64,000 nt of DNA from Candidatus Paceibacter sp. (GCA_020724845.1 DYGE01000001.1:122664-186663); one strand, 5' to 3'. Positions 37,413 to 57,609 are shown, numbered from the stretch's first letter. Notes: generated from the letters alone by a model not told the origin. A program made the numbers and translations.

Positions 37413-37483
37413 TCGGGCTGCTGGGAATCGAACCCAGACTAAATCCACCCCATGGACTCGTACTACCACTATACTACAGCCCG
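37413..37483 (-). tRNA. tRNA-Pro(GGG), CCA not encoded
   Basis: CGGGCTG acceptor stem, AGTCC-ATGGGGT-GGATT anticodon arm, CTGGG-TTCGATT-CCCAG T arm. Confidence 0.95.
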
Positions 37484-52395: not shown

Positions 52396-53697
52396 TTATT
52401 TATCAGTTGTAAGTTGCGGGTCGTTTGTCACTTTGTATACATCCCCCGCGCCCATAGCGATAATCATGTCTCCTTTCTTCGCCTCTAATATTAGAGCCGC
52501 GCGCGCATCAGCAAAAGAACTTACGTATCGCGCGTTTTTGTGGAATTTCTGCATTTTCTCCACCAAATCCCGCGAGTGGGTGCCATCGTCTTTTTCCCGC
52601 GCCGCGTAAATGTCCGCCACCAGCACCGCGTCCGCGTCACCAAAGCTTTTCGCAAAATCATTCATTAATAATTTCGTCCGGCTGAAAAGATGCGGCTGGA
52701 ACACACAAAAAACCTTGCGTTTACCCTGGGCTTGTCGAAGGGCCGCTAATGTGGCTCTGATCTCCGTCGGATGATGGCCGTAGTCGTCATACACCAGCGC
52801 GCCGCTTTTAGTCTTTCCTTTGTATTCAAATCTCCGCCAGGTGCCGCCGAACTCCTTCAGCGATTTTGCGGCCTGCTTCACATTCGCTCCAAGAATTTTA
52901 GCCACCGCCAGCGCCGCCTGCGCGTTTTCCTGATTGTGCCTGCCGATCAGTTTCAAATTTAGATTCCGCGGCATCTTGGTATAGTCAACCACAGTACAAC
53001 GCGTGCTCCTTACTATTGGAGCAAGATATTTCCCATTCGGATTGCATACGATAAAGCCATCCGGACCGGCCTTCTTCACAAATTCAGTAAACGCCTTCTG
53101 GATATTTTGAACCGTCCCATAATAATCCAAATGGTCGTTATCAATGTTGGTAACCACCGCGATCTTCGGATGAAGGTTGAGGAAAGATTTTTTATACTCG
53201 CACGCTTCCACCACAAAATAATTGCTTTTGCCGGCAACAAAGTTACTTTCTCGCCCTGAGCCAGTCGAAGGGTCTCCTTTAAGGAGGCTGCCGACAATAA
53301 TCGTCGGATCCAATCTTAAATCCCGAAGCATAGTGCCAATCATCGCCGTAGTAGTTGTTTTTCCATGAGAACCGGATACCGCGATAGTATATTTGTCTTT
53401 GGAAATTTCACCAAGCATTTCAGGATACGACAACGTTCGAATGCCAAGATTTTTTGCTTTAATCAATTCCGGATTATCTTCGCGGATCGCCGGCGAGTAC
53501 ACCACCAGATCAACATCCTTATGTAAATTTTTCTCGTCATGCCCAAAATAAATTTTCGCCCCAAGTTTTTGCAACTCTTCCGTAATCTCCGACCGGGACA
53601 TATCCGAACCAGTGACGCTTTTGTTTTTCGCTAGCATCATCCTCGCAATCGCCGAAACCCCGATGCCTCCGACGCCTATGAAATGTGCTCTTTTCAT
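52396..53697 (-). CDS. murC: UDP-N-acetylmuramate--L-alanine ligase
   Basis: HFIGVGGIGVS, GSHGKTTT, EACEY, DDYGHHPTEI, FQPH; probable start MKRAH. Confidence 0.96.
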   Translation of the reverse strand: MKRAHFIGVGGIGVSAIARMMLAKNKSVTGSDMSRSEITEELQKLGAKIYFGHDEKNLHKDVDLVVYSPAIREDNPELIKAKNLGIRTLSYPEMLGEISKDKYTIAVSGSHGKTTTTAMIGTMLRDLRLDPTIIVGSLLKGDPSTGSGRESNFVAGKSNYFVVEACEYKKSFLNLHPKIAVVTNIDNDHLDYYGTVQNIQKAFTEFVKKAGPDGFIVCNPNGKYLAPIVRSTRCTVVDYTKMPRNLNLKLIGRHNQENAQAALAVAKILGANVKQAAKSLKEFGGTWRRFEYKGKTKSGALVYDDYGHHPTEIRATLAALRQAQGKRKVFCVFQPHLFSRTKLLMNDFAKSFGDADAVLVADIYAAREKDDGTHSRDLVEKMQKFHKNARYVSSFADARAALILEAKKGDMIIAMGAGDVYKVTNDPQLTTDK

Positions 53698-54431
53698 AAA
53701 CCCCACCCCTTTATTGCCTTTTCCCACCTCTGCAAATTCCCACAGTCAAACCATTTGCCGCTTGATTTATAAGCCGCCAGCTTACGCTCCGCCGCTAGCT
53801 TGGGAAACAAGTCTTTTTCAATCATTAAAAATTTCTCCCCGGCTTGGATTTTGCCAGCCAGATGTTCGCGAACCTTCGGATCAATCAGATAAAGGCCGGA
53901 AGAAATAAAATTCGTCGGCGGATTTTCCGGTTTTTCTAAAAAATTACAAATGTGATCGCCCTCACAAATTAATACGCCATATTCGTTCGGGTTCGGCACC
54001 TCCACCGCCGCAATCGTCGCCAGCCCACGAACTTTTTGATGATGCGCAGCCATCGCAGAAAGATCTACTTCTTTCAACTCATCGCCGTTCGTCAAAAAGA
54101 ACGGCTCATCTCCGGTCCAGGTATGAAGCTGGTGCGCCCAATAGCCGAAAGTGCCCATCGGCTCCTCTTCCGCCATCAGATTAATCCATAGTCCGTTAAA
54201 ATTATTCTGATAACGCCTTAGCCACCAGGAAAAATCCTCCAGATCATCTTTACGTACGGTAATCGCCACCTCCTCTACCCCGTGCGCCTTAAACATTCCA
54301 ATGAGGTAGTTGATGATCGGCTTTTTATTCACCGTAAGTAGCGGCTTAGGAGTTTCCAAAGTAACCGGATAAAGCCGAGTTCCTTTCCCGCCGGCAAGAA
54401 TAATCGCCTTTTTAATTCTTATTCCGTTCAT
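53694..54431 (-). CDS. NDP-sugar nucleotidyltransferase
   Basis: ILAGGKGTRL, PKPLL, NGD, FLEKP, WFDCG. Confidence 0.92.
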   Translation of the reverse strand: MNGIRIKKAIILAGGKGTRLYPVTLETPKPLLTVNKKPIINYLIGMFKAHGVEEVAITVRKDDLEDFSWWLRRYQNNFNGLWINLMAEEEPMGTFGYWAHQLHTWTGDEPFFLTNGDELKEVDLSAMAAHHQKVRGLATIAAVEVPNPNEYGVLICEGDHICNFLEKPENPPTNFISSGLYLIDPKVREHLAGKIQAGEKFLMIEKDLFPKLAAERKLAAYKSSGKWFDCGNLQRWEKAIKGWGL

Positions 54432-54471
54432 ACACCTAAATATAACCTATTTCCGGTCTGCAGGGTTAACC

Positions 54472-54501
54472 AAAAAAATATCCACGTCCGAAGACGTGGA
54501 T
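54472..54501 (-). terminator. Intrinsic terminator of the large ncRNA
   Basis: AUCCACGUC-UUCG-GACGUGGAU followed by a U7 tract on minus. Confidence 0.9.
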
Positions 54502-55101
54502 GAAGGGGGTCGGAAAACGCACTTGGCGATCCTGAAAGGCGAGGTTTTCCCTGGCCTTAATCAAGTTCGCTTATCAGTATCCAGCTTGCCCCGATGTTAT
54601 GGGTAAGCGGGCGGGAATCAGATGTTGAAGGCCAGAGATCCGGCGCGCGCGATTGGCGCGCGGCCCATGGATTGCCTTCTTCCGAGGATTCCCACTGGAT
54701 ACTTGTCACCCTGCATTTCGCAAGGCTGCGTTTTCCGGTGAAGGTACGAAAGAGAAGTGGCTTTTGCCGGTGCTTGATTTACTCGCGTGCTTCAGACGCA
54801 TTTGCGAAGTAAATCCCGACAGGCCCGGATGTCGCGACACCCGAGACGCTCCATATGGGAACACAGCCCATAGAAGCGAAGCCGACCTGATGCGCCGAGG
54901 GAGCGAGTCACGGGGGATCGTGCCCGTTCCTTTGTACCCCACCAACTCCGCCTCAATTGCGGTAGCTGGACTCGGTGACCAGGTTCTAACCATCCCAGAG
55001 CGTTGTTGCGCCCTGGGTGCATTCTCCGCGGCGCCAGCCGACGCCCCCGTATCGGGAGGGCCAGCTCGTTCTGCGCCTGACCGGAGAAGATTTTCAAGGT
55101 T
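54472..55101 (-). ncRNA. Putative large (~620 nt) structured ncRNA of unrecognised class
   Basis: Own promoter and terminator, >12 helices with minus-strand G-U pairs, long-range stems, probable pseudoknot, no credible ORF. Confidence 0.8.
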
Positions 55102-55107
55102 AGGGAC

Positions 55108-55135
55108 ATTATAGCATAATAACAGAATCTGTCAA
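55108..55135 (-). promoter_or_regulatory. Sigma70 promoter TTGACA-16-TATAAT with extended -10 TG
   Basis: Minus strand TTGACAgattctgttattaTGcTATAAT. Confidence 0.85.
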
Positions 55136-55209
55136 CCCCTTAGTAGAACTTCGGCTAGGCCGCCTTTAGCGGCCTTATCGCTGAAAGCCACCGAAGTTTC
55201 ACTAAGGGG
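55136..55209. mobile_element. Palindromic miniature element with TCAA direct repeats
   Basis: ccccttagt..aacttcgg/ccgaagtt..actaagggg; TCAA at 55132-55135 and 55210-55213. Confidence 0.75.
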
Positions 55210-55318
55210 TCAAGCTCTATGACCAAAAACTCTTTGTAATTCACCTTCACAATGTTCGGAAATAAAGAAGGAGGCTCGCTGTTGAAAATTTTTTAGTAGG
55301 ATACTATAATTCAAAAAC

Positions 55319-55891
55319 ATGCTTAGTTATAATGAATTAAAAATTGGAACAATTTTTGAACTGGACGGCCAGCCGTATGAAGTTTTGTCATACGAATTTT
55401 TGCGCATGCAGCAGAGAAAACCGGTCGCCAAGACCAAAATTAAGAATTTAGTCACCGGTCAGGTGCTGGACAGAAACTTCCACCAGAACGAAACTTTCAG
55501 CGAAGCAGAGGTAGATAAACAAGAAGTTACTTATCTTTACAACCACCGCGGGGAATATTGGTTTTGCGAGAAAGGAAATCCAAAAAACCGATTCTCTCTC
55601 ACCGAAGAACAGCTCGGGAGCGCGGCTCAATTCTTGAAAGCTAATACCGACGTAACTGCGCTGAAATGGGAAGAAAAAATCCTGAACATCAAGCCGGCTA
55701 TCAAAGTTGACCTAGAAGTTACCGAAGCGCCGCCAGCCGAACGGGGCAATACTGCCCAGGGGGGCAACAAGCTGGTAACTCTGGAAACCGGAGCTAAAGT
55801 CACGACTCCGATGTTCATAAATACTGGTGACATCGTCAGGGTCAATACGGAAACCGGGCAATATGTGGAAAGAGTGGAAAAGGCCAAATAA
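55319..55891 (+). CDS. efp: Elongation factor P
   Basis: KIKNLVTG, YLYN, RGNTAQG, LETG, RVNTETGQYVER. Confidence 0.95.
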   Translation: MLSYNELKIGTIFELDGQPYEVLSYEFLRMQQRKPVAKTKIKNLVTGQVLDRNFHQNETFSEAEVDKQEVTYLYNHRGEYWFCEKGNPKNRFSLTEEQLGSAAQFLKANTDVTALKWEEKILNIKPAIKVDLEVTEAPPAERGNTAQGGNKLVTLETGAKVTTPMFINTGDIVRVNTETGQYVERVEKAK

Positions 55892-55926
55892 AAAAACCGC
55901 TAGTTCAAAAACTGGGCGGTTTTTTA

Positions 55927-57609
55927 TTATTCTGGCGCGATTTCATCTAAATCATCCTGGTCGCTTTGCTTGCTTAAAGACTTTTCCAAAGCCGCGCGCA
56001 ATTCGCTAAGGTCGGCTTTCTGCTCTGGCCGCCTGTCCGGCCTTTCCGGCTTTGGAGCGATAGGCGGAGGGGCTGGCGCCCGCGGCGGCCTGCTCGGCTC
56101 CTTCTCTTGGACCGGCTTCAATACATCGGCTAGCGGCCGTTCATGTTTCTTAGGCGGCCGTTCAGTTCTTGGCTGTCCCTCGTCTTTTCTTGGCGGCCTT
56201 TGGAAGCGCTGTTCCGCGCCTCGGTTGTAACTTGGGCGAAGCATCCTGGACATCGGCTGTTCCTGCCTCCTGCCCGGCCGATCAGAGCCAGCCCCTTCCG
56301 GCGCCGACTGCTTGCTTCGTTCCAGCCAATCTTCCGCGATCTTTCCTTCTATCACCTCTCTAGGCGTTCCGTAGTTTTTTCTAGTGTTTTGAATAATCAA
56401 TTCTTTGAAATTTTTCTCCGGGGTCGGATGCGGCGGAATAGTCATGGCCGAAAAAGGCCTGGAAGCAATGCCGTCAATCATCAGCTTAGTGTAGAAATTG
56501 TATTTGGGAAGATTCACGAAATCAATAGCCATGAAATCCGGCTGAAATTCCCTTTCCAGGAATTCCGCGTCTTCCGCGCCGACACGGAAAGAAAGCAATG
56601 TGCCGACGTTTCCGAAAATCGCGTCACGGACTTTAGTGTTGGTATCGCGGACCAGCTGCCTGATATATTGGTGGGCTAAAATCAAACAAAGGCGGTATTT
56701 TCTCGCTTCAGACAAGATGCTGGCGAAAGAATCAGTGGCAAAGTTTTGAAACTCGTCAACATAAAGATAGAAATCTTTTCTTTCGCTTTCCGGGATATCC
56801 ACCCGCGACATAGCGGCCAGCTGCAGCTTGGTAATGACCATTGCCCCTAAAAGCGCGGAGTTGTCCTCGCCGATTTTTCCCTTAGACAAGTTAAAAATCA
56901 GTATCTTTCTCTCATCCATTGCCTTTCTCATATCAATAGAAGAATGGGACTGACCCAGAATATTTCTGATCAAAGGGTTGGTGACCAGTTGGCCGACTTT
57001 GTTCTGAATGGCCGCCGTCGCCTCCGTCTCAAATTTCTGGCTGTATTTCGCGTACTCATTCACCCAAAAACCCTTAACCACCGGGTCTTTTAAATTATCA
57101 ACCACCTTTTTGCGGTAATCCTTGTCGGAAAACATCCGCATGATGCCTAGCAGCGTTGAACCGGGATACTCCAAAAGAGCCAGCAAAGCGTTGTTTAAAA
57201 TGTATTCCATGCGCGCCGACCAAAGATCGGCCCAAATTTTCTTGAAGACGCCCATAATGCCGGAGGCGACCAAATGCCGGAATTCGGTACTGACTTGTTC
57301 CAAGGGATTAAAGGCAATCGGATGCGCCATATCAGAAGGATCAAAATAAATCACGTCCTTTAAGCGCTCTTCCGGAATAAAATCCAAAAGGCGCTCGGCG
57401 AATTCTCCGTGCGGATCCACTACGCCGATTCCATGTCCGGCAAGGATATCAGAAATAACCATATTTTCTAATAAGGTCGTTTTACCGACGCCGGTTTTTC
57501 CGATCACGTACATATGGCGGCGGCGGTCATCTATCTTAATTCCAAACTGGATATTTTGGTTCCGGAAATTGGTTATCCCGAAATTTGTTTTTTTCTCTTG
57601 TTCTAGCAT
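55927..57609 (-). CDS. VirD4/TraG-HerA-like ATPase
   Basis: RRRHMYVIGKTGVGKT, DPHGE, YVDEFQNF, SEARKY, AHQY; Pro/Arg-rich tail. Confidence 0.88.
   Translation of the reverse strand: MLEQEKKTNFGITNFRNQNIQFGIKIDDRRRHMYVIGKTGVGKTTLLENMVISDILAGHGIGVVDPHGEFAERLLDFIPEERLKDVIYFDPSDMAHPIAFNPLEQVSTEFRHLVASGIMGVFKKIWADLWSARMEYILNNALLALLEYPGSTLLGIMRMFSDKDYRKKVVDNLKDPVVKGFWVNEYAKYSQKFETEATAAIQNKVGQLVTNPLIRNILGQSHSSIDMRKAMDERKILIFNLSKGKIGEDNSALLGAMVITKLQLAAMSRVDIPESERKDFYLYVDEFQNFATDSFASILSEARKYRLCLILAHQYIRQLVRDTNTKVRDAIFGNVGTLLSFRVGAEDAEFLEREFQPDFMAIDFVNLPKYNFYTKLMIDGIASRPFSAMTIPPHPTPEKNFKELIIQNTRKNYGTPREVIEGKIAEDWLERSKQSAPEGAGSDRPGRRQEQPMSRMLRPSYNRGAEQRFQRPPRKDEGQPRTERPPKKHERPLADVLKPVQEKEPSRPPRAPAPPPIAPKPERPDRRPEQKADLSELRAALEKSLSKQSDQDDLDEIAPE

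Follow-up and report, generated by a model that had tools for sequence, protein, structure and literature searches.

The region at 54472..55135 on the minus strand of the window (the whole 64,000-nt stretch of DNA analysed here), between a nucleotidyltransferase gene and efp, encodes an RNA that is real, expressed and lineage-restricted; it forms a new RNA family, though the kind of element is known. Its 3' core is a structured non-coding RNA (ncRNA), and a comparison of two sequences shows that compensatory changes preserve the fold of this core in a second genus. We consider it probable that the locus is a stand-alone gene for a structured ncRNA of an undescribed family, the core of which works in trans, as a stable particle, and not as a leader. 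The genome holding the window (G000) consists of 872 kb in 14 contigs and is 96.9% complete; its family-level relatives have genome sizes of 0.5-0.9 Mb. Patescibacteria have among the smallest genomes of free-living type, and a strongly promoted, 0.6-kb non-coding unit in such a genome is costly, and so probably does something. Three assets that are rare among orphan RNA candidates come together here: a conserved core with compensatory changes, RNA evidence and a likely processing site. The RNA is thus a well-defined candidate for probing of its structure, for pull-down experiments and for assays of cleavage or ligation.

The features of the locus and of the RNA are collected in Table 1. A first-pass annotation, made from the sequence alone, had described a GC-rich block between the nucleotidyltransferase gene and efp, and its description of the block and of the signals at both ends was borne out. 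GC content is 0.55-0.62 across 54500-55100, vs 0.38-0.49 in the flanks. The minus-strand TTGACA-16-TATAAT promoter (55135-55108) matches the consensus at 12/12 positions and carries the TG extension, with a predicted transcription start at ~55101. The UUCG-capped terminator with its U7 tract (54501-54472) has a 9-bp stem, reads ATCCACGTC-TTCG-GACGTGGAT followed by A-T7, and starts 9 nt past P1, the closing stem of the core. Three promoter-like sites were counted in the RNA region, compared with 1.0 +/- 1.0 in shuffled sequences. Immediately upstream of the RNA promoter, and outside the RNA, is a palindrome (55135-55210) of which BLAST found copies on another contig of the same genome (G000:C11) and in two relatives (G003 and G010); it looks like a small dispersed repeat. 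A further gene next to efp (55927-57609, minus strand) encodes a VirD4/TraG-like coupling ATPase (PF10412, PF02534).

Table 1. Features of the RNA locus, its conserved core and its genomic surroundings; positions are those of the window unless a contig is named.
Feature	Position	Strand	Basis or description
Sugar-phosphate nucleotidyltransferase gene	53694-54431	-	PF00483, E = 3e-37
Likely own promoter of nucleotidyltransferase gene, AT-rich	54432..54471	-	directly before ATG at 54431, read by eye
Intrinsic terminator	54472..54501	-	9-bp stem, UUCG loop, U7
Conserved core RNA, four-way junction	54505..54743 (~235 nt)	-	independent folds of two copies
P1, closing stem	54727-37/54511-21	-	core fold
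P2, hairpin	54708-26	-	core fold
P3, long-range stem	54694-54703/54576-85	-	leads into P3a and P3b
P3a	54687-93/54613-19	-	core fold
P3b, variable tip	54674-79/54627-32	-	core fold
Segment B, 32-nt GC-only hairpin tip of P3b	54642..54673	-	displaced in RNA-library contig
P4, hairpin	54609-12/54588-91	-	core fold
P5, long hairpin	54526-70	-	core fold
Junction GCCAAG, invariant	54522-27	-	precedes 3' strand of P1
5' domain, ~355 nt of GC-rich helices	54744..55101	-	specific to G000
Promoter	55108..55135	-	TTGACA, 16-nt spacer, TG-extended TATAAT; 12/12 consensus matches
Palindromic repeat element	55135..55210		arms 20 nt, 90% complementary, 36-nt centre
efp	55319-55891	+	gene on opposite side of RNA unit
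Archease, RtcB RNA ligase, beta-CASP/RMMBL ribonuclease operon	G000:C8:6930-10123 (L100 923-4116)		RtcB found in 1/23 family genomes

In the comparison with shuffled controls that the first-pass annotation had proposed as a check, the minimum-free-energy (MFE) fold of the full predicted transcript (54472-55101, minus strand, 630 nt) reached -281 kcal/mol (z = -7.5), and 0/20 shuffles folded as well. The plus strand of the same stretch gave -266.1 kcal/mol (z = -5.3). The helices listed earlier were all found in the minus-strand MFE fold, namely UUCUCCG/CGGAGAA, AGCUGGC/GUCGGCU, CCCAGGGCG/CGCUCUGGG, CCAGCU/AGUUGG, CGCUUC/GGAGCG, CUCGGGUGU/ACAUCCGGG and GAUUUACU/AGUAAAUC, as were the long-range stems 54727-37/54511-21 (11 bp), 54696-54703/54576-83 and 54687-95/54611-19. 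G-U pairs account for 17/215 predicted pairs and occur in 13/30 helices of at least 4 bp; at least six such helices had been claimed for the minus strand.

The efp locus was compared across 28 genomes. At most of these loci a gene directly adjoins efp, and in two genomes (G008 and G007) the same nucleotidyltransferase gene abuts efp with no RNA insert. One genome of a different genus (G012) has a ~760-nt gap at this locus, of which 138 nt match the 3' part of the RNA in a sensitive BLAST (66% identity). G012 has a promoter of the same layout (TTGACA, 16 nt, TG-TATTGT), 19/25 bases of which align with the G000 promoter. In G012 the promoter lies ~18 nt before P1, vs ~355 nt intervening in G000, and the unit common to both genera is therefore the 3' ~235 nt. 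The earlier proposal of a single RNA of ~620 nt thus holds for a stand-alone, non-coding, structured, minus-strand RNA, but only the 3' ~235 nt of it are conserved.

Each copy carries an additional part of its own. The 5' domain of G000 folds at -156.3 kcal/mol by itself (z = -4.25), and BLAST found no relatives of it among 60 related genomes, nor did any other search made here. It is flanked by two copies of CTTCTC (55084-55089 and 54752-54757), a direct repeat that is weak evidence, as a 6-mer could recur by chance; the domain is either an insertion in G000 or a deletion in G012, and would be a precursor or accessory part of the RNA. The G012 copy has instead a 3' extension of ~130 extra nt, made up of a 53-nt hairpin and a long nested, different terminator (L016 931-1050). 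A stretch of ~215 nt with a long GC-rich palindrome (L016 717-930) follows between this terminator and the nucleotidyltransferase gene, and the RNA copy lies ~340 nt from that gene. A strain variant assembled from one DNA run (X4) has a last 5'-domain hairpin that is 23 nt shorter (window 54777-54810); on another contig of the same run, the 175 nt upstream of the promoter (55140-55314) are replaced by 386 other letters.

Folded independently, the G000 and G012 cores gave the same helix order and the same architecture, with z = -6.9 for the G000 core and z = -5.7 for the G012 copy, and 0/200 shuffles as good in each case. P1 is 11 or 15 bp long across the two copies, and the G000 core fold with the shared P4 lies merely 1 kcal/mol above the optimum. 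In P3, both sides are changed between the genera in 7/8 pairs and no pair is broken. With an unguided MAFFT alignment and its RNAalifold structure, 41/41 pairs form in both copies, and 12/41 pairs are double changes (5.9 +/- 1.7 in shuffles, 0/500; 0-3 in slid controls). A model-fitted alignment raised the count to 62 pairs, with 94% of cells paired and 18/62 double changes (9.0 +/- 2.2 in shuffles, 0/500 as high; 1-2 in slid controls); being fitted to a model from the G000 sequence alone, this alignment leans towards structure by construction. The covariation amounts to one comparison, of two sequences plus one near-identical strain variant (X4), in which the only substitution within the core, 54618 T>C (plus strand; A>G for the RNA), converts one U-A pair to U-G. 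The 18 double changes that preserve the fold between the genera, at ~66% identity, argue for selection on the core. The first-pass annotation had taken G-U pairs to point to selection on RNA structure; compensatory changes are seen in both alignments (18/62 and 12/41 pairs).

One element of the first-pass fold did not survive the comparison. The 11-bp complementarity between 54628-54638 and 54548-54558, read earlier as a pseudoknot, is present in the G000 sequence, where it mirrors a second alternative pairing, GAAGGC/GCCUUU, but the corresponding regions of G012 contain no complementary run of at least 6 bp. We regard this pseudoknot as unsupported, since it is not conserved in G012, the sole relative.

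The block contains long open reading frames (ORFs; one of 153 aa on the plus strand and two, of 105 and 95 aa, on the minus strand), as expected of a protein-coding gene or pseudogene from a GC-rich donor. Such an origin is hardly credible in view of the remaining evidence. Pfam matched none of the five ORFs within the RNA unit, a search among proteins of 84-268 residues gave no homologue of the 153-aa ORF, and the ATG of the 105-aa ORF falls within the -10 box. A tblastx comparison of the G000 and G012 copies produced no common frame, only short pieces of 5-17 residues spread over several frames, and the indels between the two genera are of 1, 2 and 6 bases. On the question raised by the first-pass annotation, whether homologs conserve a reading frame or base pairs, no frame is conserved between the genera and the base pairs are kept.

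The RNA matches no described family. With Rfam 15 (4227 models) at the gathering score, only a tRNA at 37413-37483 passed in the whole window, and at E <= 10 the region 54300-55350 gave four chance-level matches of 13-17 bits. The G012 locus likewise gave chance-level matches only; for the ribozyme models this was a lone Hovlinc row outside the RNA, at 14.4 bits vs a threshold of 42.3 bits (E = 4.2). The strong Rfam match that, by the first-pass annotation, would have removed the novelty was thus not found among the 4227 families. The same annotation had noted the lack of RNase P and tmRNA hallmarks, in agreement with which the genome's own copies were located elsewhere: a full-length RNase P RNA (RF00010) at G000:C12:13867-14236 (102.6 bits) and the tmRNA (RF00023) at G000:C8:25602-25982 (145.2 bits). 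SRP RNA (RF00169, RF01854) was rejected as it has no match in G000 or in the region, and there is no Ffh M domain for it to bind. We also rejected 6S RNA (RF00013), which has no match in G000 and from which the present RNA is set apart by its four-way junction fold and its occurrence in 2/23 family genomes, and Y RNA/YrlA, the TROVE partner of which (PF05731, Ro60/Rsr) occurs in 0/5 genomes searched, both carriers included. Self-cleaving ribozymes and group I or group II introns have no Rfam match at E <= 10 in the G000 region. Linkage to a retron or reverse transcriptase was discarded, the nearest such gene of G012 being ~3 kb off behind two genes and that of G000 being on another contig. Literature search listings showed no paper on RNAs of this kind, or on loss of SRP, in Patescibacteria.

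Carriers of the RNA are few. BLAST of 54440-55300 against 60 relatives matched the upstream palindrome and a 34-nt piece only. A two-sequence model (R1) found the RNA in 2/23 family genomes and 2/151 sampled order genomes, and a structure-guided model (R3) found it in 2/23 family genomes at E <= 1 and in 1/151 class genomes, this one being G000 itself. G012 is therefore the one carrier among the 22 other family genomes, and the ~300 sampled order and class genomes yielded no carrier beyond these two. A model based solely on the G000 sequence detects G012 at 69.5 bits, and by efp G012 is no closer to G000 than other genera are (70% identity vs 64-72%), so orthologues of similar divergence in those genera should have been seen. 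No second copy of the RNA was found in G000 or G012. Wider searches with the motif GCCAAGTGCNTTTTCCGAC returned eight loci in species-representative genome contigs, one of them real (L057, with the same score as the G012 copy), 17 in viral contigs with none real, and 11 in JGI metagenomes with none real, including one match of 10.6 bits confined to the P1 strands. A three-part motif gave nine loci in viral contigs (0 real), and phage blastn gave one 54-nt chance match. The motif scans of all species-representative genomes, JGI metagenomes and viral contigs thus added no copy to those known. Presence in 2/23 family genomes and in no other of ~300 sampled indicates an accessory gene, not a core one; the view that the RNA is retained in a very reduced genome was therefore overstated. 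From its occurrence in 2/23 family genomes, the RNA is dispensable and could be a decaying element.

How the two genera came to share it may be explained either by an ancient origin with losses or by transfer. The carriers are not sisters in the efp tree, and their nucleotidyltransferases are the most similar pair (84.5% identity vs at most 81.3% for others). The patchy occurrence (2/23) and the efp tree are also what would be expected of the remains of a selfish or mobile RNA element (for example, a decayed RNA of intron-like or retroelement type) that is still transcribed without host function. The intergenic site gathers insertions (the palindromic repeat, the 386-letter replacement in the strain variant and the palindrome in G012), and the 5' domain is specific to G000, both in keeping with such an element. 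We nevertheless regard it as quite unlikely, given the 18 double changes across genera at ~66% identity, the conserved promoter, the lack of a second copy in either genome, and the lack of an adjacent transposase, reverse transcriptase or nuclease gene in G000.

Five sequencing runs hold the stretch or part of it, one of which is an RNA library (X5); this run and three DNA runs were compared over 53600-56000. X5 contributes one contig of 215 nt, at depth 18.7 and 100% identical to the window (0 differences), covering exactly 54529-54743, so that only the final ~24 nt of the conserved core are missing. The presence of the core sequence in an RNA library is direct evidence that it occurs as RNA in nature. 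The evidence from X5 is one assembled contig from one run, and strand, ends and level are not readable from contigs. X5 gave no further cover over 53600-56000, be it of the flanking genes or of the 5' domain (54744-55101), and at the RNase P locus only pieces of 33-35 nt from other organisms; absence of cover in X5 does not count as evidence. The first-pass annotation had predicted an abundant transcript from ~55101 to ~54475 in metatranscriptomes, of which 54529-54743 is represented in the contig.

The contig is permuted relative to the gene. In RNA sense it runs through 54673-54642, then 54743-54674 and then 54641-54529, which creates two joints found in X5 only: 54641|54674, which skips 32 nt, and 54743|54642, which goes back 102 nt. 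All three DNA runs are collinear across both sites, with a joint depth of 0. The preferred and likely reading is that the permuted contig is a cDNA artefact. The reverse transcriptase would have bypassed the all-GC hairpin (segment B), run off at 54743, the 5' end of the RNA, and finally copied the bypassed loop. Reverse-transcriptase artefacts of hairpin bypass are of a known kind, and an artefact of this sort would account for the use of the same boundaries by both joints. If this reading is correct, 54743 would be a real RNA 5' end, six nt before P1, and the core would be processed off the 5' domain.

Alternatively, the transcript may be cut at 54744/43, 54674/73 and 54642/41, by itself or by an enzyme, and re-joined in vivo, for example by RtcB-archease, in which case the permuted order (the 32-nt hairpin, 54743-54674, 54641-54529) would be a real mature or intermediate form. 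Both joints occur in one contig at depth 18.7 and are absent from 3/3 DNA runs, and the cuts around the hairpin, as read from the fold, are staggered across a 4-bp helix (AUCC/GGAU). RtcB is found in 1/23 family genomes, G000 only, within an operon of archease, RtcB and a beta-CASP ribonuclease (Table 1). We consider this cut-and-rejoin pathway unlikely, however: a cDNA artefact accounts for the same contig more simply, the contig is a single assembled one from one run, and G012 carries the RNA without RtcB. Archaeal-type splicing was rejected, as G000 has no splicing endonuclease EndA (PF01974), and no self-cleaving ribozyme family was matched at E <= 10. A specific version, in which the core would free itself at 54744/43 and the 32-nt hairpin would be excised and moved to the 5' end, with ligation by archease-RtcB, is very doubtful. 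If true, cutting and re-joining would yield a bacterial RNA with a mature sequence order unlike that of its gene. A processed or catalytic RNA would be compatible with the trans-acting role that we favour.

The position of the RNA also suggests a cis-acting leader or attenuator: like a riboswitch, the RNA together with its terminator would govern read-through into the operon of the nucleotidyltransferase and the Mur ligase. In 2/2 genomes the RNA immediately precedes that operon and is transcribed in the same direction, the terminator comes 9 nt after P1 in G000, and the automatic scan detects no further minus-strand promoter ahead of the gene. Being of common ancestry, though, the two occurrences count as one observation. 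An AT-rich -10-like box precedes the nucleotidyltransferase ATG in genomes with and without the RNA, and the layout TTAAC...TTATA(A/T)T...ATG is the same in relatives that lack the RNA; the promoter scan does not call it, its spacer being 19 nt. By eye, we found no alternative pairing between the core and a terminator arm, and no antiterminator. The G012 copy is set apart from the gene by its second hairpin, its different terminator and ~215 nt that include a long palindrome, and the strength of the RNA promoter is as usual for stable RNAs. A leader function is accordingly rather improbable, and the nucleotidyltransferase gene's own -10-like box, the separation in G012 and the stable-RNA-strength promoter argue for an independent, trans-acting RNA gene. 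In four genomes (the window; L015, L021, L016) the -10-like box lies only ~8-10 nt before the nucleotidyltransferase ATG, which suggests that this mRNA is leaderless or has a very short leader.

For the trans-acting RNA, we propose that a primary transcript of ~630 nt would be cut at or near 54744/54743, freeing the core and making the 5' domain a removable or accessory part. The invariant sequences of the junction and loops (GCCAAG, UCCCGCCC...GGGGCAA) would be a putative binding site for a protein or small ligand. The search for a partner found no Ro60, no linked reverse transcriptase and no adjacent candidate gene.

Among known systems, the RNA most resembles the raiA motif RNA (RF03072), OLE, ROOL and GOLLD, which are likewise stand-alone, GC-rich, multi-helix bacterial ncRNAs with their own promoter and terminator, a patchy distribution and an orphan function. 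raiA RNA is ~200 nt long, and the size of the core is close to it. Unlike these RNAs, whose models match neither locus at E <= 10, the present RNA is hosted by Patescibacteria, where only two genera are known to carry it, and its accessory domain occupies opposite ends in these genera, 5' in one and 3' in the other. It shares with 6S RNA a length of ~200 nt, a strong promoter and a long closing stem, and no 6S RNA is detectable in G000. However, 6S RNA is a rod with a central bubble and normally a core gene, whereas the core described here has a four-way junction and occurs in 2/23 family genomes. The lysine, cobalamin and glmS leaders also have a closing P1 round a multi-way junction that contains invariant bases, a terminator shortly past P1 and an operon for cell-envelope precursors downstream. 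The present RNA differs from them in that it has no Rfam match and, by eye, no visible antiterminator, in that the gene downstream seems to have retained a promoter of its own, and in that the G012 copy is ~340 nt away from that gene.

Two further observations concern the family of G000 as a whole. SRP RNA (RF00169) was found in 0/23 family genomes, and RF01854 had no match in G000. The Ffh M domain (PF02978) occurs in 1/23 family genomes, only in the 85%-complete G006, and G000 lacks any SRP54-type GTPase domain (PF00448), which means that both Ffh and FtsY went undetected in it. The controls of these searches were positive in 12-14 of 14 reference genomes, and the family of G000 appears to lack the signal-recognition-particle pathway. 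Reverse-transcriptase genes (PF00078, ~330-370 aa) are present in 9/23 family genomes, often several per genome, with five matches in G012. Examples are G012:C5:222217-222825 and G000:C6:11070-11672, and none is linked to the RNA in G000. These genes may be diversity-generating retroelements.
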